From positions 113,682 to 177,681 of the forward strand of contig CAKOHR010000002.1 of assembly GCA_934085825.1 (NCBI GenBank): DNA of 64,000 nt, given 5' to 3'. The notes beneath the pieces are model-generated. The model was not told where the DNA came from, did not search any database, and saw nothing but the letters and a program-made list of their open reading frames with translations. This DNA comes from an uncultured Bacilli bacterium (GTDB taxonomy: Bacteria; Bacillota_I; Bacilli_A; RF39; UBA660). Positions 1-60,294 of the stretch are shown here, in pieces. The stretch's first letter is position 1. Every line of letters starts with the position of its first letter. Made by a program: the position numbers and the translations under genes.

Positions 1-364
1 TATCCTCTTTTATTTCATATAAATTTTTAATATTTGCTATTAGTTTATTGTATTTTATATTCTTAGGTATAATATCAGCTTTGGTAAGTACCATTACTTT
101 TTTATTTTTTATTTTTTTGTAATACTTGATTACTTCAGTATCTATGTTTATAAAATCAGTTAAAAAGAAAACAAATGCATCTAGCTTATTTATTTTTTTT
201 ATTAATTCTTCATTATTTACTTTGACACCTTCACTCGTTAAAACATTATAGTTTTTTAGTTTAAAACATCTTTCACATAGTTCATTTTTTATCTCTGGTG
301 TAAATCCAGGTTCATTTTTGTTTTCAATTTGAAGTGATATTCCACATCCTTTACATTTAGTCAT
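1..364 (-). CDS. yqeH: Ribosome-biogenesis GTPase YqeH, N-terminal part (the gene continues beyond the window start)
   Basis: The minus-strand reading frame is open from the ATG at 364 to position 1. It encodes MTKCKGCGISLQIENKNEPGFTPEIKNELCERCFKL, i.e. the N-terminal CxxC...CxxC zinc finger typical of YqeH. Synteny with yqeG-yqeH supports the call. Confidence 0.7.
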   Translation of the reverse strand, partial: MTKCKGCGISLQIENKNEPGFTPEIKNELCERCFKLKNYNVLTSEGVKVNNEELIKKINKLDAFVFFLTDFINIDTEVIKYYKKIKNKKVMVLTKADIIPKNIKYNKLIANIKNLYEIKED

Positions 365-878
365 AATACACCCCGCTTACAAGAATATTCTTTTTAGCAA
401 ATTTATTTAATATTCTCTTTTCTATAAATCTATTTATTCTAGTTGGAAACATCTCATATTTAGCTACTTTATTTACTAATATACTGGTAAATCCCATTCT
501 ATTAGCACCAAGTATATCAGTTAAAAGTTGATCACCAATACAAGCTACTTCATTTATTTTAAATTTGTATAATGTAAGAATTTTTTTATACTTTCCTTTT
601 AAAGGTTTTTTGCTACTAAATGCAACATCTATATTTAATTTCTCTTTAAATGGTCTAAGACGATTTTTTCCACTATTAGATATAATAATCACTTTAAAGT
701 CAGCTTCTAATCTGGCGATAAGTTCTTTTACCTTTTGATCTGGTTCTGTAACTTTGTATGGTGCTATGGTATTGTCTAAGTCAAATAATAAGCATTTAAT
801 ACCATTTTTTTTTAACTTTTTGTAATTTATAGTATATATACTTTGAGCATATACATCGGGTATAAACAAATCAAGCAT
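357..878 (-). CDS. yqeG: YqeG-family HAD superfamily (IIIA) phosphatase
   Basis: LLFDLDNTIA (DxD motif), SNSG and GDQLLTDI HAD motifs; 173 aa; sits upstream of yqeH as in Bacillus. Confidence 0.75.
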   Translation of the reverse strand: MLDLFIPDVYAQSIYTINYKKLKKNGIKCLLFDLDNTIAPYKVTEPDQKVKELIARLEADFKVIIISNSGKNRLRPFKEKLNIDVAFSSKKPLKGKYKKILTLYKFKINEVACIGDQLLTDILGANRMGFTSILVNKVAKYEMFPTRINRFIEKRILNKFAKKNILVSGVYYD

Positions 879-976
879 AGTATCACTCTCTTTTCTTTTA
901 AAATTATACCATATGAAAAGAAAAAAAACAAAGAAAAAAACCGATATGAATTAATAACTATTAATTTACTCTCTTT

Positions 977-1004
977 AAAAAAAGTACTCAACACGAGTAC
1001 TTTA
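977..1004 (-). terminator. Rho-independent terminator downstream of the serpin gene
   Basis: Perfect 7-bp stem AGTACTC/GAGTACT with a 5-nt loop, an A-run on the plus side and a T-run on the minus side. Confidence 0.6.
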
Positions 1005-1157
1005 AAATATTAACATAACGGAAATATAAATTACTAGTAAAACAATGCTAACAACGGATATTCCTTTTATATTAATTTTATTTTCATCTTTCATATTGCC
1101 TCAACTATATCAGTATAGCAATAATTTTGCTTAACTACAAGCATTAATATCAAAACT

Positions 1158-2744
1158 TTACATCGGATTGTCACTTATAAAACAAGTTTCACTTTCATCA
1201 CAACTAATTGGCTCATAAACTGTACCAGCAAACCATGTTTCTTGACTATTTTTATCGCGAATGATGAACATGTAAGGTTTATCAAAAGTAATATCTATTT
1301 CTTCGACAGGAACATCATATAAGTATTCAAAATAACAATTTGCATCACCTGCTCCACCAACTGTAGTTGCAGCCGCAGCTTTAATGCCTTCATTAGAAAA
1401 CTCAATATTAGCTTTATGTTTTATTTCACTTATATATAAATTTTTATCACTACTTAAATTAATTAAATTAGCATGATTTGGAATAAAGACATTTGTAACT
1501 CCAAGAGATTCTAAATCTTTTTGAAGTTCAAGTTCATATTCAAACTTAAATATCGGCATAAGTCCAGTAATTCTCGTAATTTTTCCTTTTGTAAAATTAT
1601 TTATCTCAATTGTTTTTAACTTGCTTATATAATTATTAAGCTTTTTTGCATTAAGATTTTCAATAAATTTATCAAGTGAACTATTCTTTGGCATAAAGCC
1701 AATATATTCAAGTGATAATCCGTTGTAACTTTTTAAATCCTTTTGAAATACTTTAATGTCATCATCAACGTAAAAAGTATAATCGGTAGATGAGCCTACA
1801 TCTTTATAACCTTTATCAAGTTCTTTAATATATCTATTTAAAAATACATTTGTATCTTCATAATCACTTGGGTCACAATTGCCTTCAGCTTTCCATTTAT
1901 CATAAGCACTACCTACAGTTTTGCGAATACTTGCCTCACCAATCTCACTTACAATGTCATAATTATTAATTGATGATGCTATTTCTAAACCATTAACTAA
2001 GGCTTGATTATTAAATTTAATATATCTATAATAGTTAGAATCTAGCCATGATACACCAGTATAATAATCTTCATGAGGGTAAGAAACTGAGAAAGCATTA
2101 TAATATGATGTATGTTCATTATCATAAAGCATTCCTTCTGGTACTGGTTGGATAACATATTTCCATTCCATATCAATACCTAATGCATTAACCAAGAAGA
2201 AAAAATTATTGCTTGTATCATCCAACATATTAGGGATTAAACCAAGAGTTTGATTACTTATCCACTTATTAATATTATCTGGGGTTTTAAATGCATCATA
2301 TATTATTTCTGCATTATATTTTTCTTTAAGTAAATTTTTATATTCATCTTTAACACTCTTTTTATAATCATTTCTAATAAACATTGCATTTGCAAGCGAT
2401 ATGTTACTACTATTTGTGTATTTTTTAGTTTTATAATCTCCGATTATATTTTCTATTTGAGTTTTACTATCTTTATTAGTACCATCCTTTAGCATACTTA
2501 AAGCATATTTAATCGAAAGTGGGCTATAAATCTTATTCTTACTATTATTTTCTTTTTGCATAAAATATAAATCAAAATTATTTAAAGTATTATCACTTAT
2601 TTTATATTCCGAATTACTATTTTTAATACTAGTATCAACAGTTGTAAAAATATTCTTTTTAAATATAAAAAACACTACAGTACCTATTACAAGTATACCT
2701 ATTAAAACCCCGATGATAATTATTGTTTTCTTATTCTTTTTCAT
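1158..2744 (-). CDS. Membrane-anchored serpin (serine protease inhibitor) with an N-terminal TM segment
   Basis: Serpin hinge and reactive-loop signature NEGIKAAAATTV (cf. EEGTEAAAAT). C-terminal signature FDKPYMFIIRDKNSQETWFAGTVYEP (cf. FNRPFLFLIR...G.V.NP). N-terminal hydrophobic anchor TIIIIGVLIGILVIGTVVFFIF. Start placed at the internal ATG (2744), which has a GAGGAAAG Shine-Dalgarno sequence. Confidence 0.8.
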   Translation of the reverse strand: MKKNKKTIIIIGVLIGILVIGTVVFFIFKKNIFTTVDTSIKNSNSEYKISDNTLNNFDLYFMQKENNSKNKIYSPLSIKYALSMLKDGTNKDSKTQIENIIGDYKTKKYTNSSNISLANAMFIRNDYKKSVKDEYKNLLKEKYNAEIIYDAFKTPDNINKWISNQTLGLIPNMLDDTSNNFFFLVNALGIDMEWKYVIQPVPEGMLYDNEHTSYYNAFSVSYPHEDYYTGVSWLDSNYYRYIKFNNQALVNGLEIASSINNYDIVSEIGEASIRKTVGSAYDKWKAEGNCDPSDYEDTNVFLNRYIKELDKGYKDVGSSTDYTFYVDDDIKVFQKDLKSYNGLSLEYIGFMPKNSSLDKFIENLNAKKLNNYISKLKTIEINNFTKGKITRITGLMPIFKFEYELELQKDLESLGVTNVFIPNHANLINLSSDKNLYISEIKHKANIEFSNEGIKAAAATTVGGAGDANCYFEYLYDVPVEEIDITFDKPYMFIIRDKNSQETWFAGTVYEPISCDESETCFISDNPM

Positions 2745-2755
2745 AATTTCTTTCC

Positions 2756-3574
2756 TCACTTTTGACATTTTGGACAAAAATATGTGCTTCTACCACCAAT
2801 TTTAATATTTTCTATGAGTGTCCCACACACTTTACATTCCTTTCCTTCTCTTTTATGAACCATCAGATGTTGTTGAAACCTTCCTGTAACACCTAAAGAT
2901 GAAGTATAACTTTTAATCGTAGTTCCGCCATCTTTTATTGCGGCATCAATTATTTTCTTGCTAGCTTTAACTATTAAATCACACTCTTTTAAACTAATAT
3001 CTTTACCAAGTTTATTTGGACTTATTCTAGCATCAAACATTACTTCATTAGCATAAATATTGCCAAGTCCACTTATAATTGTTTGGTCTAAAAGTAAACT
3101 TTTAATGGGTATATTTTTCTTATGTATTTTATCATACAAATATTCTTTAGTAAGTTTTTCACTATTAGCTTCAATACCTTGTTTTTTTATAGCTTCAACC
3201 TTATCAATATCACTTTTTTTAACTAAATTCATTCTACCAAATTTTCTAGTATCATGATATCTTAGATCAGTTCCATCTTCAAATGATATTATTATATGCT
3301 CATGTTTAATTATTTCATCAGTACTTTTCTTAACAAAATATTTACCTTCCATTCTTAAATGACTAAGCAAGTAATAATCATTTAAGTCAAACATAAGCCA
3401 TTTCCCGATTCTATCTATATCAATAAATTTTCTACCTAATAAAATATCTTTAAAATCATTAATATCACTTTCAATAATCTTTGGATATATTATTTTTACA
3501 TCCACTATTTGTTTATTTAAAATCATTCTTTTTAAAGTATTTCTAACTGTTTCTACTTCTGCTATCTCTGGCAT
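2756..3574 (-). CDS. mutM: Formamidopyrimidine-DNA glycosylase (Fpg/MutM)
   Basis: N-terminal MPEIAEVETV (catalytic Pro2/Glu3); C-terminal zinc finger CKVCGTLI...CPKCQ; 272 aa. Confidence 0.9.
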   Translation of the reverse strand: MPEIAEVETVRNTLKRMILNKQIVDVKIIYPKIIESDINDFKDILLGRKFIDIDRIGKWLMFDLNDYYLLSHLRMEGKYFVKKSTDEIIKHEHIIISFEDGTDLRYHDTRKFGRMNLVKKSDIDKVEAIKKQGIEANSEKLTKEYLYDKIHKKNIPIKSLLLDQTIISGLGNIYANEVMFDARISPNKLGKDISLKECDLIVKASKKIIDAAIKDGGTTIKSYTSSLGVTGRFQQHLMVHKREGKECKVCGTLIENIKIGGRSTYFCPKCQK

Positions 3575-3577
3575 AAG

Positions 3578-4747
3578 CTAATCTCTCCCTTCCACAGAAA
3601 AATCTTGTGATGCAACAATTATATCTTCTGGATAATTAAAATTAAATCCATGTAAGCGATTAATTGTTTCCGTAGTAACGTTTACATACGCATAATTTAT
3701 TGTATCACCAGAATCGGCCCAAGTAAGATCCAAATGATAAAATTTACCATCAATTTTTACTAAATTCCATTCATGATAAACACCTGCAAATGCCGAATAA
3801 GATTCTAGACCTACCAGATTTGCAATAAAATTAAATGCTTGAGCATAATTATGACATTGACCATACCCTAAAACTAAAGGATAATATAAATCATGTGTTC
3901 CATTATTAGTACCATCTGTACTTTTATAAATCATTTTTTTAACAATAAATTCCGATATTTTAATTTCCTTTTCAAAATCTGTCATATCACTAGTTAAGGT
4001 ACTTGCAAAATTTTCAGCAACTTCTTTGGCTTCTTTGTAAGTTTTTATATTATTTTTATTCCATTCATATCTTTGGAAACTTTCACACCTTACATATGTA
4101 TCACTGCATCCACTTAGGCGTGTATTATCAAAATCTCTTTCATAAATTATATCATTATCTTTAAACTCATACAGATAAAAATTATTTAGACTATTATTTA
4201 ATATTTTATCAAGAGATGATACCATTACTTCTAAATTAGTTATATTGTTATTATAAAGTGTTGGCATATCTGTTAGATTATTTAATGAAGTAAGAACTGA
4301 TACATCTTCGATTTCATTTGAAAATAAGCTAAGTTTTTCTAAAGATGTTAAGTTTTTTAATGGACTTATATCTTTGATTTTATTTAAGTTAAGAAGAAGT
4401 ATTTTAAGTTTAGTAAGATTTTTTAATTTACTTATATCCTTGATGTTATTTTGACTCATAGATAAAGCTTCAAGATTTTTAAAGTATTCTATTCCTGATA
4501 TATCTTTGATATTTAAATTGTCTAAATAGAGACTTTTTATATTTAGGGCATCATTTATTTTTACTTCTTCGGTATTCATTATATTTTTTATAGCTTTTTC
4601 TAAGTTTTTATCTTTAAAAACTATTACATCACTTTCGATTATTTCTTCAGGAGTTTGGTTATCTTTGGCATTAAAATACTCAATACCAAAGATAATGCCA
4701 AGTAAAGACGTTATAATTAATAATAATATTATTACTTTTTTCATCAT
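3578..4747 (-). CDS. Secreted leucine-rich-repeat protein with a C-terminal transglutaminase-like (Cys-His-Asp) domain
   Basis: Signal/TM segment at the N-terminus. Tandem ~22-aa LRR units (LxxLxLxxNxIxDIS). C-terminal GQCHNYAQAF...HEWNLVKIDGKFYHLDLTWAD matches the transglutaminase-like cysteine protease core. Confidence 0.6.
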   Translation of the reverse strand: MMKKVIILLLIITSLLGIIFGIEYFNAKDNQTPEEIIESDVIVFKDKNLEKAIKNIMNTEEVKINDALNIKSLYLDNLNIKDISGIEYFKNLEALSMSQNNIKDISKLKNLTKLKILLLNLNKIKDISPLKNLTSLEKLSLFSNEIEDVSVLTSLNNLTDMPTLYNNNITNLEVMVSSLDKILNNSLNNFYLYEFKDNDIIYERDFDNTRLSGCSDTYVRCESFQRYEWNKNNIKTYKEAKEVAENFASTLTSDMTDFEKEIKISEFIVKKMIYKSTDGTNNGTHDLYYPLVLGYGQCHNYAQAFNFIANLVGLESYSAFAGVYHEWNLVKIDGKFYHLDLTWADSGDTINYAYVNVTTETINRLHGFNFNYPEDIIVASQDFSVEGRD

Positions 4748-7520: not shown

Positions 7521-8471
7521 ATGTTAACTACTCAAACAAAATTTTATGGCTTTAATTACGATAAAATGTTTAAAGCTATATTTATCGGGCCTAAAAAAGA
7601 AAGAACACATTTATTGTGTGAATTACTCAGCGAATGTTTAAAAATTAAAATCGATAAAATTCTTAAATTTATTCCTGTTGAACTTAGCATTAGACAAAAA
7701 AAAGAAAGATATAAAAGGTTGGATTTGCTTCTTGAAGCAGAGGGAAGAAAAATAAATTTGGAACTTAATTCATCTTATAGTGAAAGCACAAGAATTAGAA
7801 ATTTAAACTACTATTTTTCTTTTTGTAGTCAACAAGCAGTTGCTGGTGATGCTTATGATACTGAATCGGACTTTATTCACATCTCGCTTAATTATAACGT
7901 AGATGATAACACTCCTTTAATAAAGTGTTATACTCTTTATGATAAAAGCCACAACATTGAATTTGATTCGAGATTTAAATACTATGAAATTAATGTTGAA
8001 AAATTTGCAAAACTTTGGTATGATAATGACATAGAAAGCGCTAGAAAAAATCCACTTTTAACTATGATTGGCATAAAAGATGAAAAAGAATTAGAAAAAT
8101 ATTCAATTGAAATGGATAACTCTAGTATCAAGGAGAGTGTTGATAGTTTGAAAAGATTAAATAGTGATGCTGCTTTTGTTTATGACATTACACCTGAAGA
8201 AGATGAAATATTAATTAAAAACACCATTAAGAAATTGGCTAGAAAAGAAGGTTTGGCAGAAGGCCGTGCTGAAGGTCGTGCTGAAGGTCGTGCTGAAGGT
8301 CGTGTTGAAGGTCGTGCTGAAGGTCGTACTGAAGGCTTTGCTGAAGGAGCAGAAGATACAAAAAGAATAATAGCGATTAATATGATAAAGGCCAATATTT
8401 CAATAGAACAAATATCAAACTTGACAGGTTTAGCAGAAAATGAAATAAAAAAAATTGAAAAAGAAATTTAA
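7521..8471 (+). CDS. Rpn-family (YhgA-like) PD-(D/E)XK nuclease / putative transposase with an internal EGRA tandem repeat
   Basis: N-terminal FGFNYDKMFKAIF...RLDLLLEAEGRKINLELNS is the PD-(D/E)XK core typical of Rpn/TIGR01784 proteins. Family-typical C-terminal helix region (IAINMIKANISIEQISNLTGL). Six in-frame EGRA/EGRV/EGRT repeats. GGAGG Shine-Dalgarno sequence. Confidence 0.6.
   Translation: MLTTQTKFYGFNYDKMFKAIFIGPKKERTHLLCELLSECLKIKIDKILKFIPVELSIRQKKERYKRLDLLLEAEGRKINLELNSSYSESTRIRNLNYYFSFCSQQAVAGDAYDTESDFIHISLNYNVDDNTPLIKCYTLYDKSHNIEFDSRFKYYEINVEKFAKLWYDNDIESARKNPLLTMIGIKDEKELEKYSIEMDNSSIKESVDSLKRLNSDAAFVYDITPEEDEILIKNTIKKLARKEGLAEGRAEGRAEGRAEGRVEGRAEGRTEGFAEGAEDTKRIIAINMIKANISIEQISNLTGLAENEIKKIEKEI
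8230..8345 (+). repeat. In-frame 12-bp tandem repeat (gaaggtcgtgct, ~8 units) inside the Rpn-family gene
   Basis: Direct reading of the sequence; units are locally GC-richer than the genome and encode EGRA x6 with variants. Confidence 0.8.
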
Positions 8472-16164: not shown

Positions 16165-16290
16165 TATCTTATAAAGAGTGATGGAGGGACTAGCCCTTTG
16201 AAATCACACCAACTTATTAAATTAGGTGGTAATGCTAGAACTATAAGATACTTTCCTATCATCCAAGGTTATTCTTGGATGCTTTTTTAT
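16165..16290 (+). ncRNA. SAM-I (S-box) riboswitch with an intrinsic terminator; orphan (no downstream plus-strand gene)
   Basis: CUUAUAAAGAG...GGAGGGACUAGCCCUUUGAA...GGUGGUAAUGCUAGAACUAUAAG matches the S-box core (cf. B. subtilis yitJ leader CUUAUCAAGAG..GGAGGGACUGGCCCGAUGAA..GGUGCCAAUUCC..AGAUGAG). P1 forms from CUUAUAA with UUAUAAG. The terminator is UCCAAG-GUUAUU-CUUGGA followed by a U-run. Confidence 0.7.
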
Positions 16291-16352: not shown

Positions 16353-16429
16353 TGGCGTCCTTGGCAGGAATCGAACCTGTGACCTAATGCGTCGGAGGCA
16401 TTCGCTCTATCCTACTGAGCTACAAGGAC
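16353..16429 (-). tRNA. tRNA-Arg (anticodon CCG), CCA encoded
   Basis: Manual cloverleaf: acceptor GUCCUUG/CAAGGAC, D-stem GCUC/GAGC, anticodon stem AAUGC/GCAUU with loop CUCCGAC, T-loop UUCGAUU, discriminator G, CCA. A hairpin with a U-run follows. Confidence 0.85.
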
Positions 16430-23503: not shown

Positions 23504-24361
23504 TTATCTTTTAAAAGTTTTAAAATATACATCTTTTAGTCTATCACTTGAAACATGAGTATAAATACCCGTTGTACTTAGATTAGCATGACCTAAAAGC
23601 TCTTGAACAGTTCTAATATCGGCACCATTATTAAGTAGATGAGTAGCAAATGTATGTCTAAGTGTATGCGGAGTCACATGAGTTTTAATTGATATATGTT
23701 TCATAATATCTTTAATAATGTATTCAACTTCTTCAATAGTTAGCTTTTCTCCTTTTTTATTTGTAAATAGATATCCTTTTCTATCTTTGCCATGTAAATA
23801 CATTTCTAGATACTTACTTGCATAGTCACCAAAATATACAATTCTTTCTTTACTTCCTTTACCCATTACTTTAATAGTTTTATTTCTTAAATCTATATCA
23901 TTTATTTTTACATTTACCATTTCTCCTACTCTACAACCAGTTGAATAAAACATTTCAATTAACAATCTTTTTTCCAGACCATCTTCTGTAGATATATCAA
24001 TAGATTCAAGTATTTCTTCTATTTCATTATAGTTTAAATAATTAGGTAACTTTTTTTCTAATTTAGGATTTTTAACATTTAAAAATATATTACTTTTAAT
24101 AAGTCCATTTTCAAGTAAATAGTTATAAAAGGTTCGCAAAGCACTTATTCTTCTAGATATAGTAGTATTCTTTAAATTACATGTATCTAAATATTTCAAG
24201 TATCCTCTTACATGTATATTCTCTATATTTAAAAAGTCTATCTTACGTGAATTTACATACTTAAAAAAATCAGTTAAATCTAACTGATAATTTTTAATTG
24301 TATAATCTGAGTAATTAACTTCATCTTTTAAATAATGTAAGAATTTATCTATTTCTTTCAT
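23504..24361 (-). CDS. Tyrosine site-specific recombinase (XerC/XerD-like)
   Basis: C-terminal catalytic HTLRHTFATHLL...GHANLSTTGIYTHV (R..H..R..Y pattern); 285 aa; N-terminal SAM-like domain. Confidence 0.8.
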   Translation of the reverse strand: MKEIDKFLHYLKDEVNYSDYTIKNYQLDLTDFFKYVNSRKIDFLNIENIHVRGYLKYLDTCNLKNTTISRRISALRTFYNYLLENGLIKSNIFLNVKNPKLEKKLPNYLNYNEIEEILESIDISTEDGLEKRLLIEMFYSTGCRVGEMVNVKINDIDLRNKTIKVMGKGSKERIVYFGDYASKYLEMYLHGKDRKGYLFTNKKGEKLTIEEVEYIIKDIMKHISIKTHVTPHTLRHTFATHLLNNGADIRTVQELLGHANLSTTGIYTHVSSDRLKDVYFKTFKR

Positions 24362-24716
24362 CTTCGTTATCTCTTTCTAATAAAACGTTTTTCAAATTAT
24401 CAAATTTTTCTCTTAACTCTTGGAGTTTTCGTTGATCATATACCATATCACTACGACATTCAGTTATTTCTTGATAATGTACTCCTGGAGTTTTGATTCG
24501 TTCTTCACAGGCTTTGATATCTTGCATTAAATCTACTATTTCCTCATTTATATGCTTTAGTTCATTACCTAGAAGTATTGTAAATTCATGGTTTGTAATA
24601 GGATTCATAAGGGCTACTTCTTCATCGGTTAAATTTTCTGTTTCTTCCATGTGTTCTTTACGATATTCATCAATAAGTATTTTTTGATATTCTTTTGTTT
24701 TTTCATTTAAAGTCAT
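24345..24716 (-). CDS. Hypothetical coiled-coil protein (123 aa), translationally coupled to the recombinase
   Basis: 17-nt overlap with the xer-like start; highly charged; no recognised motif. Confidence 0.4.
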   Translation of the reverse strand: MTLNEKTKEYQKILIDEYRKEHMEETENLTDEEVALMNPITNHEFTILLGNELKHINEEIVDLMQDIKACEERIKTPGVHYQEITECRSDMVYDQRKLQELREKFDNLKNVLLERDNEDERNR

Positions 24717-24718
24717 AT

Positions 24719-25357
24719 TTATTCCGCCTTTTCTACACGTATATAACCCTTTAATTCTTTTTCTAAATTATTGTTTTGATTTTCACTTAAATTAACATAT
24801 GTAACTTTGGCATTCCATTTTTCAAGTTTTTCGCTTTCGGTTGTAAGAAGCCTATTTCTTGTTATATAAAATTTTCCAATAGAGGTTGTAATATCAAATC
24901 CTTTGATAGTGTTTCCTTGACCATCAACAACACTTACATAATTTAATCCTTCAACACTAGTTACTTCATTTCCATCATAATCTTTAACTTCTAATATTAG
25001 TTCTGGTTTTTTTTCACTAGTAGAATAAGTTAGTGTATTACTTTCAATATTTAAATATATGTTGTATTTGATACTGGAAATTTCACTACCTTCTTCACGT
25101 CTTAGATAAGCACTAGCAAATGTTTCAGAGGATAGATTTCCCATTTTATCTTTAAAATTGTTTACATCTGGATATATACCAATTGGATTTCCAGCATCGA
25201 ATAAAATATAATTAAGTGTTGCTGTACTAGTTTCTATTTTAGGTGAAAAACGAGCCACCCGAACCATAGTAAAGTATGCATATGTTGCACCAGTTACAAG
25301 CATTAAGAGTGAAAACACATATAATGCTGTAATAATATTTCTAAATTTTTTACTCAT
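24719..25357 (-). CDS. Secreted protein with a SipW-cognate (TasA/camelysin-class) signal peptide; short paralog
   Basis: N-terminal KK-TM-GATYAYF matches the G(G/A)T(F/Y/W)A(Y/A)F motif of TasA/CalY-class signal peptides. Paralogous to residues 1-210 of the adjacent 524-aa protein. Confidence 0.5.
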   Translation of the reverse strand: MSKKFRNIITALYVFSLLMLVTGATYAYFTMVRVARFSPKIETSTATLNYILFDAGNPIGIYPDVNNFKDKMGNLSSETFASAYLRREEGSEISSIKYNIYLNIESNTLTYSTSEKKPELILEVKDYDGNEVTSVEGLNYVSVVDGQGNTIKGFDITTSIGKFYITRNRLLTTESEKLEKWNAKVTYVNLSENQNNNLEKELKGYIRVEKAE

Positions 25358-25394
25358 TTAATCACCTTTTCTATTTTTTTATAGTAAAAATTGT

Positions 25395-25795
25395 TTCTTT
25401 AACGTAGCATCTACGCATAATGTTCAAAACTTTGTCACTAACTTTTGCTATCGCCACTGCCTCGCCTGCCAACAGTGCAGACGCGGCAGCCTTTTGTTTC
25501 TCTCAAAGCCTACCTCTTCCTTCTCACTCCAGCTGAACTTTGCGCGGCCTGCCCAGCACGCGGACGCGCTGGACAGGCATGACCTAAAGCACTAGTTTAT
25601 TACCATCGGGTCGTCGGCGCTGCCACTCCCCGATACATAAGTTATGGAAGACTCAAGATTGAAGGACGGCCTCACGCCACCACTGCCGTTATCCACATAG
25701 CTGCGGTCCACGAAACCATCGCTGTTCAAAAGGAACGCACTGCGCGGAATGTCCGCATAACGGGAAATAGTCCATTCCCATAAGCCCATAAACAT
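25395..25795. other. ~400-bp GC-rich island (~55% GC vs ~28% background) spanning the last ~65 codons of the 524-aa gene and 210 bp downstream
   Basis: Direct base composition (e.g. 25441-25500 is 34/60 G+C). Codons switch to GGC/GTG/CCG/GCC. An 11-bp GC hairpin (gcctgcccagc / gctggacaggc) sits 3' of the stop with no U-tract. Confidence 0.8.
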
Positions 25796-27166
25796 CCAAT
25801 TTGATGTTGTAGCTGCTCTATAATCTTTTGTTGCATCACTATTATATCCAGGATATGTCCAATATGTTGGATCTGCTGCGTAGCCATAATCACTTACATA
25901 CATTAAACCCATTTTTGCTGTGTATTCTGTAGCATTATCTGTACTATTTGTCGTTACTGGATTTACTATTTCATTTTGATATGCTACATTCATTGCTGCT
26001 TCACCTATTTTTGTCCAAGTGTTTCCCCCAACTTTCCATGTTGTTGTCGCTATTTTATTTGCCCATTCTGTTCCTATATTTGTTATGAAATTTGTGTTTA
26101 AATTTGTTTTATTTAACATGCTTTCACTCCATGTGTTTTTACTTGTTGAGTTATTCCAATAATAGATATTTATTGTTGTCAAACTTCCTTTGTATGTGGA
26201 ATAGCTACTTTTCGAAAATATACTTGGTTTATAATCTCCATCTGTTCCAAGTAAATTACTATTTGCATAATCATATTTGATTACTTTTACTTTATCTCCA
26301 AATACTCCGATTATTCTATACAAATTATCTGTTGGACATGGCGTTGTATTGGTTCCAAAACATACATAGTTATTTGGATTTGCTCCAGCATATCTATATG
26401 AGTTATCTTCTGCTCCATTTGCTAAGCTTGCATCATGATAATACATTCCATTATCTCCTTGTGTTCCTGTGTAAAGTTTTGCTACATGACATGATAATGT
26501 ATTATCATTACAATTTGTGTGTAAAGCATATTTTTCCTTTTGTACCATAACTTTGGCACTCATACTTTTGCCAGCATTGTTATTTTGGCTTGCATCATAG
26601 TTTACAAATGTTACTGCTATATTCCACTGTTCTTCTTTACTTGGTGTTGCTGTTATTTCTCTGTTATTAAATAGTGTTATTACTCCCTTTTTATTTGTTA
26701 TGTCATATCCAGAGATACTTGTACCACTTGCATCTTTTACAGAGGTATGTGTTAAACCAGCAATATCTGTTATTTCGGTTCCTGTGCTATCAGTTACTGT
26801 CATTATTATTTCTGGGGTACTATCATCTATTGAATATGTAAATGTATTATTTTCAATATTTAAATAAACATAATAATGTTCTGTTGCGGTATTAGTCTTG
26901 TTATTGGCTGTTAGATTTACTTTAGCAAAAGTGTTTCCAACTCGATTTCCTTTTCCACTTGCAAAATTATCTTGATCTAGTGTAAAGGAAATAGGATTAC
27001 CTACCGAAAATGTAAATGTATCTACGGTGTAAGATGAAACCTTGATATCTGCAGATTTTGGGTCTCCACCTTGAGCTTTAAAATAGGCATATGTTGCCCC
27101 TACCACTAGTAATACTAGGGTTATTATTGTTATTACACTTAGAATAATTGATTTCTTTTTTGACAT
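25592..27166 (-). CDS. Secreted protein with a SipW-cognate signal peptide and a DUF6273-like C-terminal domain (GVRP motif)
   Basis: N-terminal LVVGATYAYF. C-terminal ...GLWEWTISRY...SAFLLNSDGFVDRSYVDNGSGGVRPSFNLESS resembles the W-W-x-R-S-P...GVRPAL C-terminal module. Promoter TTGAAT-17-TATAAT and an AAAGGAG Shine-Dalgarno sequence. Confidence 0.5.
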   Translation of the reverse strand: MSKKKSIILSVITIITLVLLVVGATYAYFKAQGGDPKSADIKVSSYTVDTFTFSVGNPISFTLDQDNFASGKGNRVGNTFAKVNLTANNKTNTATEHYYVYLNIENNTFTYSIDDSTPEIIMTVTDSTGTEITDIAGLTHTSVKDASGTSISGYDITNKKGVITLFNNREITATPSKEEQWNIAVTFVNYDASQNNNAGKSMSAKVMVQKEKYALHTNCNDNTLSCHVAKLYTGTQGDNGMYYHDASLANGAEDNSYRYAGANPNNYVCFGTNTTPCPTDNLYRIIGVFGDKVKVIKYDYANSNLLGTDGDYKPSIFSKSSYSTYKGSLTTINIYYWNNSTSKNTWSESMLNKTNLNTNFITNIGTEWANKIATTTWKVGGNTWTKIGEAAMNVAYQNEIVNPVTTNSTDNATEYTAKMGLMYVSDYGYAADPTYWTYPGYNSDATKDYRAATTSNWMFMGLWEWTISRYADIPRSAFLLNSDGFVDRSYVDNGSGGVRPSFNLESSITYVSGSGSADDPMVIN

Positions 27167-27293
27167 ATAACTTGCTCCTTTTTATCATAAGTCAATTATA
27201 TAATAAATTGATATTTTATTCAATGATTTTTTAAAATAATATTGCCAAAAATATATTTTTAAGGTAAAATTAATATAGAGAGAAGGTATACAA

Positions 27294-29731: not shown

Positions 29732-29950
29732 CTATTCTGCTTTAAATTCTTTTAATTCATTATCTTCAGTTAAAATTTTATTTACTTTTTGCGTAGCATC
29801 ATTTAATTTTTCACCACAATACTTAGCTAATTTCATAGCTTCAGTATATTTATTAATTGCATCATCTAAATTTACATTACCACTTTCTAACTCTTTAACT
29901 ATAGTTTCTAGCTCCTCAAGTGAACTTTCAAAATTTTTATTTTCTTCCAT
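29732..29950 (-). CDS. xseB: Exodeoxyribonuclease VII small subunit
   Basis: 72 aa; LEELETIVKELESGNVNLDDAINKYTEAMKL is the XseB signature. Confidence 0.85.
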   Translation of the reverse strand: MEENKNFESSLEELETIVKELESGNVNLDDAINKYTEAMKLAKYCGEKLNDATQKVNKILTEDNELKEFKAE

Positions 29951-29982: not shown

Positions 29983-30822
29983 TTATTTTAATAATTTACT
30001 ATTGCTAGTTATTTTATCTTTATTTTCTTTTTCTAATACTTTTAAACTTTTTTCTGGAGTTGGATAATCTTCTGGCATTGTTCCTCCCAGTTCTTTTATA
30101 GTATTTCTTATTTTTTTACCTACTTCGTAGTGCACATCATTTGCATTTACTTCTCCCTTAACATTATCTCTTTTTAATTTTTGTTCTGTTTGAGAAATTC
30201 TAAAAAGATTTGCTATTAGTTCATCACTGCCCATATTATCTAAAATATCTTCTCTATATCTTAATCCTTTTCTTTTGGCAATGTCATTAGCAGCCTCACC
30301 ATTATATAATCCTTTATAACCAGCATTATGAAACTTATCAAAATTCTTTACTCCAGCATCTTTAGCTGCTTGGTTCAAAGAATAATTACCTTTTTTAGTT
30401 AAATTTCTTTGATAAAATCTTTTTTCATCTTCTGTTAAACTAGAATATTCTCTTTCTGAAATTTCTTGTTTTCTAGTTTGAACAGCAAAATATGTTTGTG
30501 CAAGAGCTATCGTCTTCTTTCTTGAATCACCATTTTGAGCAATTAAGTAACATGCATAGCGGGATAATTTATAATCTTCGATTTTTCTTTTTGTTTTAGA
30601 CCCTATTTCGACCATTTTTCCCAAGTGGGAAAAATGGTCATCAATAGCATAATTGCTATTTTTACAAGAAATTGTCGCATTATTAATTACATTATTGAAT
30701 TTATCCCACCTTTTATATTCTAAAACAACCATGAGTTCCCTTGCAAGCCAATAATCATTACCATTTTCATCAACATGTTTTACATTTTCAAAAATACTAT
30801 TATTTAGCATTAATTCATTCAT
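29983..30822 (-). CDS. dinD: DNA-damage-inducible protein D (DinD)-family protein, inserted between xseA and xseB
   Basis: Motifs LSRYACYLIAQNGD, QTYFAVQTRKQE, GYKGLYNGEA, RKGL, ILDNMGSDELIANLFRISQTEQKLKRD and ELGGTMPEDYPTP match the DinD family along its whole length. Confidence 0.7.
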   Translation of the reverse strand: MNELMLNNSIFENVKHVDENGNDYWLARELMVVLEYKRWDKFNNVINNATISCKNSNYAIDDHFSHLGKMVEIGSKTKRKIEDYKLSRYACYLIAQNGDSRKKTIALAQTYFAVQTRKQEISEREYSSLTEDEKRFYQRNLTKKGNYSLNQAAKDAGVKNFDKFHNAGYKGLYNGEAANDIAKRKGLRYREDILDNMGSDELIANLFRISQTEQKLKRDNVKGEVNANDVHYEVGKKIRNTIKELGGTMPEDYPTPEKSLKVLEKENKDKITSNSKLLK

Positions 30823-30927: not shown

Positions 30928-32187
30928 TTATTTTTCTACAACTTTAGCTTTAATAGCCCCTTCATGTAACTTAACATTAATAATATCATCAATATTTACG
31001 TCATTACTAGATTTAATTACTTTATTATTAATTGTTGCTAGTGAATAACCTTTTTCTAAAATGCCTAGGGGATTAACAAGTTTCAATGTATTAATCAGTA
31101 GATTATATTCATTTTTCTTTTTATCAATTAAACTCATTGGATTTTGAAGAGCAACAGACATTTTAACTTTATTAAGCTTTATTTCATTATTTTGAATTAT
31201 TACTTTAATATCTTTATTTAATTTATCTATTAAAGTATCCAATTTTTGTTCTTTCATTTCATACATAGTCATTGGATTTTTTAAAATAAAACTATTTTTT
31301 AAACTTCTCCATTTAATAAATTTAGTATTAACCATATTCTTAATATTCTTATTAAGTCTAATCTTATAATTATTAAGTAAAGTATTTATATCTAATACCG
31401 TTGGCACTGCCATTTCTGCAGCTCCGGTCGGAGTAGGAGCCCGCAGGTCTGCTACAAAATCTGCTATTGTCCAATCAATTTCATGACCAACAGCACTTAT
31501 AATCGGGGTCCTACATTCGTAAATTGCATGAGCTACTATTTCTTCGTTAAATGCCCACAAATCTTCAATTGAACCTCCTCCACGGCCAACAATAATAGTA
31601 TCTACACCAAACTCATCAGCTCTTTTAATTTGTCTTACAATATCTGGAGCAGCGTCTTTACCTTGAACTAAACAAGGAAAAAGTATTGCTTCACAAACTG
31701 GGTATCTTCTTCTTATTGTACTCATGATATCCCTTACAGCTGCTCCCGTTGATGCCGTAATAACTCCGATTTTTTCAGGAAATTTTGGTATTGCTTTTTT
31801 ATGCATTGCATCAAATAAACCAACTGATGCTAATTTTTTCTTTAATTTTTCATATTCAACATATAAAGCTCCTAGACCATCTGGTTCCATTTTTTCTATA
31901 TATACCTGATAACTACCTTGTGCTGGATATGCACTAATTCTACCTTCTACTAAAACATTCATTCCATCTTCTGGTGTAAATGTAAGTTTGGCAGCACTAC
32001 TTTGAAACATAACAGCACTAAGTCTTGATGTATCATCTTTTAATGTTAAGTAAAGATGACCTCTTGTATGACTTTTAAAATTACTAATTTCTCCTTTTAA
32101 ATATACTTTATTTAAAAATGTATTATCGTCTAACAAGTTTTTGATGTAATTGTTTAAATCACTTATTTTAATGTATTCTTTGTCCAT
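30928..32187 (-). CDS. xseA: Exodeoxyribonuclease VII large subunit
   Basis: 419 aa; N-terminal OB-fold (VYLKGEISNFKSHTRGHLYLTLKD); catalytic core; C-terminal coiled coil. Confidence 0.9.
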   Translation of the reverse strand: MDKEYIKISDLNNYIKNLLDDNTFLNKVYLKGEISNFKSHTRGHLYLTLKDDTSRLSAVMFQSSAAKLTFTPEDGMNVLVEGRISAYPAQGSYQVYIEKMEPDGLGALYVEYEKLKKKLASVGLFDAMHKKAIPKFPEKIGVITASTGAAVRDIMSTIRRRYPVCEAILFPCLVQGKDAAPDIVRQIKRADEFGVDTIIVGRGGGSIEDLWAFNEEIVAHAIYECRTPIISAVGHEIDWTIADFVADLRAPTPTGAAEMAVPTVLDINTLLNNYKIRLNKNIKNMVNTKFIKWRSLKNSFILKNPMTMYEMKEQKLDTLIDKLNKDIKVIIQNNEIKLNKVKMSVALQNPMSLIDKKKNEYNLLINTLKLVNPLGILEKGYSLATINNKVIKSSNDVNIDDIINVKLHEGAIKAKVVEK

Positions 32188-33486: not shown

Positions 33487-33948
33487 CTATTTTAGATTTG
33501 CTTCAATTATTAACTGATTACCTTTTCTTACCTGGTCACAAGTTGTTAAAATTAATTGATTTTCTTTATTTTTTATCTTTATCTTACCATTTTTCTTCTC
33601 ACTTCTAATATTTGCAATTTCATATTTTAAAATTTTATCTTTAAACTTGAGATATATTTCATCATCCTTTTCCAAATATTTTAAATCATTAAAATATGCA
33701 AGATTACCTGTGCCAGAATGAGCTGCTAAAATATAAGTATTTTCAATATTAGAATTTATCAAAGTGACATTTTTATCAACATCATTTAATTTGTTATTAA
33801 TATCATAAAAACCATGAGTCATATTTAATGTAGGTATTATAAGATAACCATAATAATTACTTTTATCTAAAGAAATATCATTTTTTATGATTTCTTTTTT
33901 ACATCCCATCAACAAAAGTAATAAAAATACTAACCATATTTTTTTCAT
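33487..33948 (-). CDS. Minimal sortase-family transpeptidase with a lipoprotein-type signal (LLLMGC)
   Basis: His motif ILAAHSG; Cys motif LILTTCDQ followed by Arg (VRKGNQ); 153 aa. Confidence 0.5.
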   Translation of the reverse strand: MKKIWLVFLLLLLMGCKKEIIKNDISLDKSNYYGYLIIPTLNMTHGFYDINNKLNDVDKNVTLINSNIENTYILAAHSGTGNLAYFNDLKYLEKDDEIYLKFKDKILKYEIANIRSEKKNGKIKIKNKENQLILTTCDQVRKGNQLIIEANLK

Positions 33949-34931
33949 TCAAAATAGCACTTTTTCTTATAATAGATAATACTATACTCACTTACTTCAG
34001 TATTAGGTACATCTATTAATATTTCTTCATTATCTAAAACATCTTGATTATCTTTTTTATTATCTGAATCTATTTCTTCTTTTATTGTTTTTTCATTTAG
34101 AACTTTATCTTCTTCAGCATTCTTTATAACATCTTCATTATTTTCTTCATCTTTTGAATTATTAATAACCTCATCTTTCTTAACATACTTATAAAATATG
34201 CCTTCCCCGAATATATATAAATAATTACTACTGTCAGAAAAATCACATATTTTTCCATTTATTTCTATTTTTTCTGGATATGCTGGTTTATCAAAATAAT
34301 ATAATTTTCCTTTTCTAGTTGCATTATCAATCTCCAAGTCTTCTTCACTATATATTCCATCTATAAAATATCTTGATACATTTGCTGTTCTATCCATTTT
34401 AACAAGTTCACTAGTAACCCTAGCAGTCTTATTATCTTTTATAAAGTATTTTCCAGCTGGCAAAATTACTTCACAACTACTTTTACTTTTGCAAATACTC
34501 ACTTCATTAAAATTTTCATCATAGATAGTTATGTCAGTATCACTATCTACACTTTCAATATATTTTCCATAACCACGATATATTGTTTTAAAAGTAACAT
34601 TCATATTTTTTACTTTTCTGTCAAACTTAATTATTTTACTTTCATCATGTAAAATAATATCATCCATTTTTTCATAAGCACTATTACTAGTAGTTTCCAC
34701 AATTTTAATATTTAAACCTTTATTATAATAATATATTTTATTATTTGAATTCAAAAATACTCTTTCTATAAAAGCATTTGTATCATTATTATAAATTTCA
34801 ATAGTTAAATTGGAATATGTCATATCAATTTCAAATTTTACATAATTTTTATTATTTACCTCCGTTTCTGCACCATAGCAATTTGTTACTCCGATTAGCA
34901 TTAAAGCTAAAAATACTGCAATTTTTTTCAT
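33945..34931 (-). CDS. Secreted hypothetical protein (328 aa), co-transcribed upstream of the sortase-like gene
   Basis: Signal peptide; acidic C-terminal region; no LPXTG motif; 4-nt overlap with the sortase start. Confidence 0.45.
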   Translation of the reverse strand: MKKIAVFLALMLIGVTNCYGAETEVNNKNYVKFEIDMTYSNLTIEIYNNDTNAFIERVFLNSNNKIYYYNKGLNIKIVETTSNSAYEKMDDIILHDESKIIKFDRKVKNMNVTFKTIYRGYGKYIESVDSDTDITIYDENFNEVSICKSKSSCEVILPAGKYFIKDNKTARVTSELVKMDRTANVSRYFIDGIYSEEDLEIDNATRKGKLYYFDKPAYPEKIEINGKICDFSDSSNYLYIFGEGIFYKYVKKDEVINNSKDEENNEDVIKNAEEDKVLNEKTIKEEIDSDNKKDNQDVLDNEEILIDVPNTEVSEYSIIYYKKKCYFE

Positions 34932-51713: not shown

Positions 51714-52205
51714 TTAAATTTTTCCAAATTTACTAAACGGAAATAATCTAAATACAACTTTGCCTTTTATTTCTTTCTCTTTGATTGGGCCAAAATATCT
51801 TGAATCTTTACTAATAAGTCTATTATCCCCTAAAATAAAATACTCATTACTTTTTAAAGTTATTCTATCATAATCACTTGTCATGCCGTAAGCATACTTA
51901 TCCTCTATTTTTTTATCATTAATATATATTTCTCCATCTTTAATAGCTACGGTATCTCCAGGCATACCAATAACTCTTTTAATTATTTTTTCATCATCAT
52001 CAGTTTCGTGAAGAACAATGACATCAAATCTTTTAATCTTACTTAACTTATAAAGTATTAGAATATCTCCATTCTTAAATGTCTTATTCATACTGTCACC
52101 ATCAACCCTAACTGGCGTTGCAATAAATGAACGGATAAGTACAACTACAATTACAATAACAATGTATGGTATTAATTCTTTAATTACTTTTTTTATAAAA
52201 ATCAA
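51714..52205 (-). CDS. lepB: Signal peptidase I (bacterial P-type)
   Basis: Catalytic Ser (VDGDSM) and Lys (KRVIG) boxes; GDNRLISKDSR box E. Confidence 0.85.
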   Translation of the reverse strand: MIFIKKVIKELIPYIVIVIVVVLIRSFIATPVRVDGDSMNKTFKNGDILILYKLSKIKRFDVIVLHETDDDEKIIKRVIGMPGDTVAIKDGEIYINDKKIEDKYAYGMTSDYDRITLKSNEYFILGDNRLISKDSRYFGPIKEKEIKGKVVFRLFPFSKFGKI

Positions 52206-58205: not shown

Positions 58206-58267
58206 ATATTTTGCTCCTTATAGTTTTATTATAACATAAAAATAGAAAATTTTTTATATTTTTAAAT

Positions 58268-58296
58268 TTGACTTTTAGCCACATTTATGCTATTAT
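58268..58296 (+). promoter_or_regulatory. Near-consensus sigma-A promoter TTGACT-17-(TGc)TATTAT for the candidate sRNA
   Basis: TTGACT at 58268-58273, 17-nt spacer, TG at 58288-58289, TATTAT at 58291-58296. Confidence 0.6.
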
Positions 58297-58302
58297 GTAT
58301 TT

Positions 58303-58420
58303 AGCAAAGAAAATTTGCATATAATAAAAAAATGGAACATCCGTTTTTACCGAGATTGGATGCTACCAATAATGTGGATGGCATCTAAATCAACCTCGTT
58401 GATTTAGATGCTTTTTGTTA
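58303..58420 (+). ncRNA. Candidate ~118-nt sRNA (putative type I antitoxin), convergent with and 3'-overlapping the 27-aa ORF
   Basis: Strong promoter upstream. Intrinsic terminator with a 13-14-bp perfect stem (GCATCTAAATCAAC / GTTGATTTAGATGC, 58381-58411) and a UUUUUGUU tail. No ORF. Confidence 0.5.
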
Positions 58421-58576: not shown

Positions 58577-58810
58577 TTATATTACTAAATAGTTTCAAAA
58601 GCAAGCAATTTAAGCCACTTTATAAAATTTATAATAACCAAATTTAAAATATGTATATATAAGTATATGCATGTTTATTTTTAGCAACTTTTTAACCATT
58701 ATTTTTAATTAAGATTGTCCTATTATGTATTTAGCAAAGAAGATTTGCTTGTAACGAAAAAGGAACACATCATTTTGAAACCACTCAGTGTTAACCTATT
58801 TATTTTAAAT

Positions 58811-59944: not shown

Positions 59945-60294
59945 AAAATAATCTGAATAAGCCATGTTTTGTTCTTCATAAAGAAGAGGCAAATATTTAT
60001 CTTACATCTCTGCATCTAAAGTAAATTCAGTTTTTTACTTTAAACTCCCCTACCATAATTTGGGTTTCTCGCTTGCGGGGTTTACCACGTTCCACCTACA
60101 AAGTTTCCCTTGTAGCTCGTCTCTTTGGCACTTTTATATCTAATAAAACCATTTAAGGTCCCCTCGAAGCCGTTAACTTGCGTTACCTTAGGTTATTTTT
60201 TCCCTAAGCACAAACACTACAGACATCGCAGTCTGTGCGAGCATGGACTTTCCTCTACATAACTATCTTATGCAGCATTTGCCACTAGATTATT
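59945..60294 (-). ncRNA. rnpB: RNase P RNA, type B (Firmicutes-type)
   Basis: The minus strand contains GUAGAGGAAAGUCCAUGCUCGCAC..., GUGGAACGUGGUAAACCCCGCAAGCGAGAAACCCAAAUUAUGGUA and AACAAAACAUGGCUUAUUCAG. These closely match B. subtilis rnpB conserved regions. P1 forms from AAUAAUCU with AGAUUAUU. The 5' end abuts or overlaps the gpsB stop. Confidence 0.9.

Follow-up and report, generated by a model that had tools for sequence, protein, structure and literature searches.

Several described systems come close to the locus that is the subject of this report. In the diversity-generating retroelement (DGR) of Bordetella phage BPP-1 (Mtd/Brt), changes between the template repeat (TR) and the variable region (VR) are specific to adenines, the VR lies at the C-terminus of the target protein, and a hairpin rich in guanine and cytosine (GC) that follows the VR, with a 4-nt loop, is required for retrohoming (PMC3240598). 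The TvpA DGR of Treponema denticola is a cellular system with C-terminal lectin-type VRs in surface proteins, and combines one cassette with scattered targets (PMC5758913). Here we examine a 64,000-nt stretch of contig CAKOHR010000002.1 (the window; positions 113,682 to 177,681 of the forward strand) from an uncultured human-gut bacterium of the RF39 group, recovered as part of a 303,632-nt contig from a Hadza gut metagenome (ENA ERZ4560598). It holds a gene for a 524-aa protein that we read, at a probability of about 0.8, as a DGR target with a retroelement-written VR. Our best explanation is that the locus is a chromosomal DGR variable-protein gene remote from the reverse transcriptase (RT), with recognition hairpins, in a conserved operon with an invariant paralog of its N-terminal domain.

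The target of the Legionella DGR is a lipoprotein. Legionella provides one example of the 'architecture D' DGRs, which resemble the present system in having a MutS_I-like (MSL) protein, Avd and RT, and a chromosomal exported target; such MSL + Avd cassettes, and remote targets, were described by Wu et al. 2018 (PMC5758913). A further likeness is to phage DGR targets, namely the tentaclins and those of Faecalibacterium prophages, in which DUF6273, a C-type-lectin-like DGR target domain, carries the VR; in the prophage group the VR maps to the C-terminal end of the domain (PMC10743442, PMC11792537). The phage proteins are receptor-binding proteins, whereas here the gene is chromosomal and its product reaches no Pfam threshold. 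The type V pilus tip adhesin DGRs of Bacteroides (bioRxiv 10.1101/2024.11.15.621889) are likewise DGRs of gut commensals, and they act on the part of a surface appendage that adheres; they belong to another phylum and use another export signal. For our locus an invariant partner subunit, the 212-aa paralog described below, is conceivable. Large metagenomic DGR surveys state that they miss targets remote from the RT (PMC8144416), and in the literature searched we found nothing that ties DGRs to TasA/SipW-type proteins or to RF39. Three features make the form of the present system unusual: the target family, in small gut Bacilli, is expanded and unannotated, the hairpin is double and distal, and modules are exchanged between strains.

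The 524-aa gene is chromosomal, with proS, xseAB and an ABC transporter in its flanks, and the window as a whole has a GC content of 27%. The parts of the gene and of the element behind it are as follows.

25592-27166, minus strand: open reading frame (ORF) of the 524-aa DGR variable protein, comprising signal or anchor, N-terminal beta-sandwich, DUF6273-like C-module with the VR, and conserved tail
27080-27166, minus strand: signal/anchor, residues 1-29 (MSKKK, hydrophobic helix, GATYAYF), from sequence and family conservation
26537-27025, minus strand: N-domain beta-sandwich, residues ~48-210, from an AlphaFold2 (AF2) model; shared with the 212-aa paralog and 97-100% identical between conspecific strains
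25595-26536, minus strand: C-terminal module, residues 211-524, divergent DUF6273/C-type-lectin-like, the segment replaced between strains
25667-25768, minus strand: VR, codons 467-500, ISRYADIPRSAFLLNSDGFVDRSYVDNGSGGVRP, from the NNY codon pattern, the A-poor scaffold and the homolog alignment
25595-25666, minus strand: conserved 24-codon tail, SFNLESSITYVSGSGSADDPMVIN, beyond the end of TR homology; its DNA is ~100% identical in L090, L092 and L093
25434-25591, minus strand: GC-rich (58%) element of 158 nt 3' of the stop codon ('class A', found behind cassette-adjacent and some remote targets)
25547-25578, minus strand: hairpin 1, 14-bp stem with 4-nt loop TCCG, beginning 88 nt past the VR end
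25456-25490, minus strand: hairpin 2, interrupted 13-bp stem with 7-nt loop; 94% of cells paired, five pairs changed on both sides

The evidence that carries the DGR reading begins at the C-terminus of the protein. More than 8000 homologs of the 524-aa protein are present in metagenomes; it belongs to a large family of DGR targets, which an earlier note on this DNA, made from the letters alone, had overlooked. The aligned homologs share a C-terminus of the form ISRxADxSxxAFxVxxxGxVxxxxVxxxxAVRPSFNLESS, in which hypervariable columns stand between invariant scaffold residues. These columns are filled almost solely by amino acids that NNY codons can encode, and hypervariable NNY columns amid an invariant scaffold are a DGR footprint.

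The window VR has the composition that such an origin predicts. All 17 of its variable codons are NNY, and the scaffold uses codons that avoid A, such as GCG, GTG, CCG and GGC. A third-position A occurs in none of the 34 VR codons but in 46.8% of the codons elsewhere in the gene (P ~5e-10), and the GC content of the VR is 57%, against 32% for the comparison sequence of the gene. It is because the TR-derived segment avoids adenine that the coding part of a GC-rich patch stands out in this AT-rich genome. That patch (25434-25768, 335 nt, 55% GC against 27% in the window) consists of the VR, the 24-codon tail, the stop codon and the 158 nt beyond; it had been pointed out in the earlier note as a possible correlate of C-terminal variation, and it is both real and, through the VR and the downstream element, tied to that variation. 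VRs that are proven to be live have a GC content of 0.51-0.57 and a third-position A fraction of 0-0.03, and the window VR is like them in composition; the decayed VRs that other strains and species carry at this locus have 0.44-0.46 and 0.06-0.15, respectively, and the window VR is unlike them. With its A-avoiding scaffold and 17 AAY-templated codons that are now NNY, the VR sequence is the expected product of mutagenic retrohoming, and we hold with high confidence that the VR is of DGR origin.

Two observations on VRs elsewhere in the family may be recorded here. Proteins P0006-P0120 include dozens of 514-aa homologs with one scaffold, SRxA[DG]xSxxAFxVxx[DG]GxVxxxxVxxxxAVRP, and differing NNY-type residues; the scaffold matches a TR of the L108/L146 type, and the set has the look of a target under very active diversification in a common gut species. 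For other VRs, the identical sequence recurs in 10-15 protein clusters.

Complete DGR cassettes are present in relatives. A scan of species-representative genomes returned 177 relatives of the 524-aa protein, from records named uncultured Bacilli, uncultured Tenericutes, Firmicutes bacterium CAG:460 and Clostridium sp. CAG:609; these appear to be of the RF39-type lineage of gut bacteria with small genomes. In the best 80 loci, from which copy numbers were taken, a metagenome-assembled genome (MAG) carries 4-11 or more paralogous copies. Two complete cassettes (L017, L041) came from the genome scan itself, and others (L081-L089, L101, L146) were reached via the RT protein and a motif in the TR spacer (GACCTTTA-N8-30-AAGATTAAGGTTTTAT). 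The order is target, GC-rich element, TR (~100 nt), conserved spacer, a MutS_I-like protein of 124-126 aa, Avd of 114-118 aa (NF033474, E 2e-7, full length), RT of 358-363 aa (RVT_1 5e-19, with IGNMTSQ and YMDD motifs), and an ORF of ~80 aa. Within these cassettes, the VRs next to the TR differ from it at 14-19 adenines, and mismatches at other bases are nearly absent (0/69 in L017; 0/67 and 1/67 in L083 and L084; 0/68 in L087 and L088). Scanning with the TR-spacer motif gave 48 cassettes with 15 distinct TRs.

Among these, the TR closest to the window VR is that of L101, from another organism: ISRNADNSNNAFNVNNDGNVNNNNVNNNNGVRP. The two differ at 19 of 35 A sites and at 4 of 64 non-A sites (Fisher p=1.4e-7), and the third positions of the variable codons agree in 16 of 17 cases. 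A change from CGG in the TR to AGG in the VR, which is among these four non-A differences, separates L101's own TR and VR as well, so it may be a base that distinguishes VR from TR rather than a true mismatch.

Compared with the MSL + Avd systems already described, the arrangement here is target, hairpins, TR, MSL, avd, RT and an 81-aa ORF, in uncultured low-GC gut Bacilli and with a TasA-like N-terminus on the target. The Treponema DGR, by comparison, has an HRDC accessory gene in place of MutS-like and Avd, and seven non-adjacent targets; here there are 4-11 or more paralogs per small genome, and most of the remote copies tested mismatch the TR at non-A sites. In L101, positions 300-4200 show frame breaks in the target, MSL, avd and RT (multiple tblastn segments), from either a low-quality assembly or a decaying cassette. 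At 2028-2200 of L057 (MAG CAKORG), another VR gene runs at its 3' end in frame into the 5' half of a TR, with no RT after it; either the assembly went wrong at the repeats, or TR and VR recombined and the cassette was lost. The RT cluster P0122 was considered as the window's cassette and rejected, as it yields a TR of the L108 type and not the window's.

The element behind the stop codon gives a further line of evidence. The 158 nt past the window's stop codon are homologous to the spacer between target and TR in L101, L057 and L017, and the element is carried by about one third of the 89 family members examined, including every cassette-adjacent one; the remaining members have different conserved 3' sequences or none. 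As RNA, a 171-nt sense-strand segment folds with z=-3.2, and none of 200 shuffles folds as well. Over 20 copies of the element, 84% of cells are paired, against 19-49% in slid controls, and ten pairs show compensatory changes on both sides, a number reached by none of 500 shuffles. RNAalifold on the MAFFT alignment missed hairpin 1 through the placement of gaps, and the pairing was supplied by hand. Several G.U wobble pairs are conserved on the sense strand, and the antisense strand therefore folds worse: as DNA, hairpin 1 reaches -15.6 kcal/mol in the sense strand (z -3.6) and -11.8 in the antisense (z -1.5), and hairpin 2 reaches -12.4 and -9.2 kcal/mol, respectively. Both hairpins are intact in the window. 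Just past the element, at ~25396-25433, the window has an insertion of 38 nt relative to L090, L092 and L093, AAAGTTTTGAACATTATGCGTAGATGCTACGTTAAAGA, which contains a small imperfect palindrome.

We next compared the locus between strains, using conspecific loci found via near-identical 212-aa proteins and P0002. The flanks, the N-domain, the 212-aa and 123-aa genes and xer (all described below) are 96-100% identical. Between target nt ~630, which is residue ~211 and the junction of the domains, and the 3' end of the VR, identity falls to 30-94% depending on the allele. There are at least four alleles at the locus, among them the window allele (524 aa), that of L097 (518 aa), that of L090, L092 and L093 (515 aa) and that of L091 and L095 (495 aa). 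Across the tail and hairpin element L090, L092 and L093 are again 100% identical to the window, and in L091, L095 and L097 the hairpin element is partly deleted and the VRs are decayed. The whole C-module is thus exchanged between conspecific strains, and this forms a second layer of variation; the possibility raised in the earlier note, that the locus varies in its C-terminal module, proved right. The window allele differs from that of L097 as follows.

65 codons before the VR: 1, 2 and 11 differences at codon positions 1, 2 and 3; 8 synonymous and 5 non-synonymous codons
VR: 16, 12 and 3 differences at codon positions 1, 2 and 3; 0 synonymous and 17 non-synonymous codons
Tail: 1, 0 and 3 differences at codon positions 1, 2 and 3; 3 synonymous and 1 non-synonymous codons

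The boundaries of the exchanged segment coincide with long conserved stretches, as homologous recombination predicts. The N-domain on one side and the tail with the hairpin element on the other would act as homology arms, and the dispersed paralogs may be the donors. The engine of variation is probably a DGR together with ordinary recombination among paralogs.

The exchanged module is itself widespread. For its 310 residues there are 1977 representative relatives, which carry many different architectures on the N-terminal side, and DUF6273 is the commonest Pfam family among them (19/88 at E<=0.1, best E 1.7e-10). The window protein has no match to DUF6273 (PF19789) at E<=1; the L069 paralog scores 16.5 bits over profile positions 20-171, and P0364 scores 45 bits on the homologous stretch, against a gathering threshold of 23.5 bits. 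Because its relatives match and it does not, we regard the C-module as a divergent relative of DUF6273 rather than a scored member. The earlier proposal of a DUF6273-like C-terminus was thus right as to relatedness; the lead was a good one, and it points to a DGR. Type IV pilin N-termini (N_methyl motif) occur in 3 of the 88 C-domain relatives, and distant C-domain members in L051 (~17288), L059 (~16357) and L070 (~11778) are directly followed by genes with type IV prepilin N-termini (KKG-x-TLIELVISIAL).

Downstream of the target gene lie three further minus-strand ORFs, and upstream of it a candidate promoter. The coordinates of all four ORFs are as the earlier note gave them.

27195-27223, minus strand: promoter-like site upstream of the 524-aa gene (TTGAAT, 17 nt, TATAAT), with 10/12 consensus matches, a consensus match only
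24719-25357, minus strand: ORF of the 212-aa N-domain-only paralog (signal and beta-sandwich, without the lectin module)
24345-24716, minus strand: ORF of a 123-aa acidic, helical protein of no recognisable family, syntenic in ~10 genomes
23504-24361, minus strand: ORF of a Xer-type tyrosine recombinase of 285 aa (PF00589, 2e-47)

The 123-aa gene begins 2 nt past the stop codon of the 212-aa gene, and its 3' end overlaps xer by 17 nt, as had been noticed before. A search for terminator-like sites between 23300 and 27400 found none, which upholds the earlier statement that no terminator precedes the xer stop. The 212-aa protein aligns without gaps to residues 1-210 of the 524-aa protein (39% identity, E 3e-46), and it is indeed an N-domain-only paralog. 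It has 34 homologs in 5.8 billion proteins, is 98-100% identical between strains, and is apparently a conserved, single-copy gene. The two genes also share the 20-nt stretch that had been proposed as a site of rearrangement: 27081-27100 and 25272-25291 are identical at 17 of 20 positions, with an exact core of 11 nt, against a background identity of 52% in the DNA of the domain. Since the stretch consists of the conserved motif codons and nothing more, we accept the similarity and reject the role as a recombination site.

In SipW-type signals a hydrophobic segment ends in G-(G/A)-T-(F/Y/W)-A-(Y/A)-F, a motif that GATYAYF fits in both secreted proteins. Each starts with M-S-K-K, a hydrophobic stretch and GATYAYF, in agreement with the KK-TM-GATYAYF of the earlier note, and A24, T25, A27, Y28 and F29 are invariant or nearly so in 116 family members. 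In this respect the pair resembles TasA/TapA/SipW of Bacillus subtilis and CalY of B. cereus, which share the positive N-terminus, the hydrophobic segment, the G-x-T-aromatic-A-x-F motif and the presence of two unequal paralogs in an operon. Unlike in those systems, there is no sipW in the operon or in the 64-kb window, and hidden Markov models (HMMs), hhalign and Foldseek find no similarity between the mature domains. On TIGR04088 (cut-off 19 bits) the 212-aa protein reaches 12.4 bits and the 524-aa protein has no match; Pfam searches of both returned no match to TasA/Peptidase_M73 or to DUF6273; and the family profile found no sequence in the PDB at E<=10. Alignment by hhalign to a verified TasA sequence covers the signal segment only, in register (VVGATYAYF against VGGGTWAAF) and at low probability. 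In an AF2 model from a 116-sequence alignment, residues 48-210 form a beta-sandwich behind a long N-terminal helix at a predicted local distance difference test (pLDDT) score of 85-96, and residues 32-46, after the motif, are a low-confidence linker. Foldseek with the N-domain gave generic jelly-roll matches, and TasA was not among the top ones. Because profile, hhalign and Foldseek searches all leave the mature domain unmatched to TasA, the proteins resemble SipW substrates at the level of the motif only: the motif part of the proposed SipW-cognate class stands and its model-based part does not, and membership in the TasA/camelysin (Peptidase_M73) family is unsupported in both sequence and fold. 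The one signal peptidase in the window (51714-52205) is P-type, as had been stated (TIGR02227 145 bits; TIGR02228 31 bits, cut-off 51.85).

Relatives do carry SipW-type peptidases, within 5-10 kb of family members. In Clostridium sp. CAG:609 (L069, 3640-8302), a sipW cluster 1.3 kb upstream of a DGR-target family member holds a 169-aa peptidase (TIGR02228 68.6 bits) and a further, degenerate copy of it. The cluster also has three small proteins whose signals are of the G-x-T-Y-x-x-F type (one of the three reaches 23.8 bits on TIGR04088), and a 401-aa protein that ends in a non-variable DUF6273-like stretch. SipW-like fragments are present in L054 and L056.

The recombinase has Phage_integrase and SAM-like N-domains. 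It scores 288 bits on PRK00283 'tyrosine recombinase' (cut-off 279) and stays below the XerC/XerD equivalog cut-offs (306 against 335 and 301 against 330 bits). In ~10 genomes it is 74-88% identical and in the same position after the orthologs of the 212-aa and 123-aa genes, and its conservation exceeds that of its neighbours. The other ~80 family members have no Xer in their flanks, and a search around the genes for inverted or direct repeats suited to site-specific switching gave nothing beyond AT-rich chance matches. L062 has a second Xer-like gene (38% identity). The enzyme is probably a housekeeping recombinase of the XerC/XerD type. We treat both xer and the 123-aa gene as conserved neighbours of the variation system rather than as parts of it. 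In L056 (12488-13063; MAG CAKOHI), the 123-aa ortholog is internally duplicated (191 aa) and the overlapping xer still follows it.

If the locus is a DGR target remote from its RT, a cassette elsewhere in the genome (target, hairpins, TR, MutS-like, Avd, RT) would transcribe the TR; RT and Avd would make a cDNA with random bases opposite the TR adenines; and the cDNA would replace the VR, guided by the 3' end of the VR (GGC GTG AGG CCG) and by the downstream hairpins. The output would be up to 15^17 (~10^20) variants of the tip of a protein whose N-terminal KK-TM-GATYAYF segment would serve for export or anchoring. A number of results weigh against this account. Repeat searches, sensitive blastn and tblastn of the 64-kb window found no RT, Avd or TR, and IUPAC patterns built from the window VR found no cognate TR (0 matches in viral and metagenome contigs); current activity is therefore unproven. 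Against the nearest TR, which comes from another organism, the window VR has one extra codon (GGT) besides the four non-A mismatches. The window's protein is identical on nine contigs, and a 99% relative (P0001) has the same VR, so that nothing points to continuing change in this strain. The distance from the VR to hairpin 1 is 88 nt, past the 24-codon tail, with a second hairpin behind it and a TCCG loop, whereas in BPP-1 and related studied phage DGRs a stem of 7-10 bp with a GRNA loop lies 4-34 bp from the VR (PMC3240598). The AF2 model of the C-module is unreliable (pLDDT below 50), and support for a lectin fold is indirect, through the relatives that match DUF6273. The window and L097 alleles are ~7% apart in the flanking module sequence, so that the VR changes may predate the exchange and have been made in donor paralogs rather than in place. 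Finally, in MAG CAKORY the remote paralogs differ from that genome's own TR at 8-16 non-A sites and by indels; because of these mismatches many dispersed copies are either fossils or served by TRs missed in the assemblies, where RT contigs are typically short, and we reject the idea that all dispersed paralogs are live targets of one TR. Several of these results, namely the constant VR, the absence of a cassette from the window, the mismatches to the nearest TR and those in CAKORY, together with the decayed VRs and partly deleted hairpin elements at the same locus in L091, L095 and L097, would also be expected of a fossil: a VR once written by a DGR, perhaps beside a cassette, that came here by gene conversion and now undergoes only ordinary mutation and module replacement. 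We hold this to be possible, though not probable. The window VR still lacks third-position A and keeps 57% GC in a 27% GC genome, like the proven live VRs; both hairpins are intact; and since the nearest TR is from another organism, the mismatches may be species differences. Whether the VR is being rewritten in this genome at present seems to us evenly balanced.

The other explanations concern the protein, its neighbour and the patch. The N-domain and the 212-aa protein might be cleaved by SipW and polymerise like TasA and TapA into a fibre or matrix, with the 212-aa protein as shaft and the 524-aa protein as its lectin-bearing tip, an arrangement that could coexist with a DGR. The conserved GATYAYF in register with the GGGTWAAF of TasA, the low-confidence stretch at residues 32-46, where a donor strand would be, the SipW-type peptidases beside family members in relatives (L069, with fragments in L054 and L056) and the pilin N-termini on some C-domain relatives are consistent with it. 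We nevertheless consider it unlikely, given the sub-threshold or absent TIGR04088 scores, the lack of Peptidase_M73, PDB and top Foldseek matches, and the absence of sipW from the window; moreover, the hydrophobic segment could be an uncleaved membrane anchor. Very improbable is the proposal, taken from the earlier note, that the adjacent Xer swaps C-modules at specific sites. The modules do differ between conspecific strains with sharp boundaries, and xer is linked to the target in a string free of terminator-like sites, so that the exchange itself stands; as the engine of it, Xer is contradicted by its generic score, its high conservation and synteny, its absence from the flanks of ~80 other members, and the lack of anything but AT-rich chance repeats around a module whose boundaries fit homologous recombination. 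That the GC patch is foreign DNA acquired by horizontal transfer, an unrelated non-coding RNA gene or an assembly chimera was suggested by the jump from 27% to 55% over 335 nt, and is largely refuted: assemblies from other samples reproduce the tail and element exactly, the reading frame runs through into a conserved protein tail, no Rfam family matches within the patch, and its composition is explained by A-avoidance in the TR-derived VR and by the GC-rich hairpins. A bolder combination would be a filament that varies in two tiers, built of SipW-processed, TasA-like donor-strand subunits with a 212-aa shaft and interchangeable 524-aa lectin tips; the DGR would act at the cassette-proximal copy, and C-modules would be exchanged from the 4-11 or more paralogs with the N-domain and the tail plus hairpin as homology arms. 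We regard this as speculative and rather improbable.

Other features of the window lie apart from the target locus. The SAM riboswitch, tRNA and RNase P RNA listed here are the sole Rfam or tRNA matches in the window.

16166-16249, plus strand: SAM riboswitch (Rfam)
16353-16429, minus strand: tRNA-Arg(CCG) (Rfam/tRNA scan)
59953-60291, minus strand: RNase P RNA class B (Rfam)

A 12-nt tandem repeat, GAAGGTCGTGCT, occupies 8235-8354 in seven overlapping 48-nt copies, within a plus-strand ORF (7521-8471) where it encodes an (EGRA)n tract. Between xseA (30928-32187) and xseB (29732-29950) lies a gene for a 279-aa Bro-N (phage-type) protein (29983-30822, minus strand), which looks like an insertion into the exonuclease VII gene pair. 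At 33487-34931 (minus strand), a 328-aa secreted protein without a family match lies upstream of a small sortase (TIGR01076, 44.7 bits), and the two are coupled. A non-coding direct repeat of 88 nt (58259-58346 and 58689-58776, 430 nt apart, 72% identity, core CTATTATGTATTTAGCAAAGAA.ATTTGC) could be a duplicated leader or promoter.

The locus shows that remote DGR targets can be recognised from raw sequence, by an A-depleted, GC-rich patch at the 3' end of a gene, followed by hairpins, in an AT-rich genome. The distal two-hairpin element, with its sense-strand wobbles, offers a handle on what a DGR recognises at a remote target. The locus also exposes an expanded family of exported proteins without a Pfam match in uncultured human-gut Bacilli with small genomes. 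Tips that vary both by retro-mutagenesis and by module exchange would be relevant to attachment to hosts, partners or food, or to evasion of phage or antibodies.

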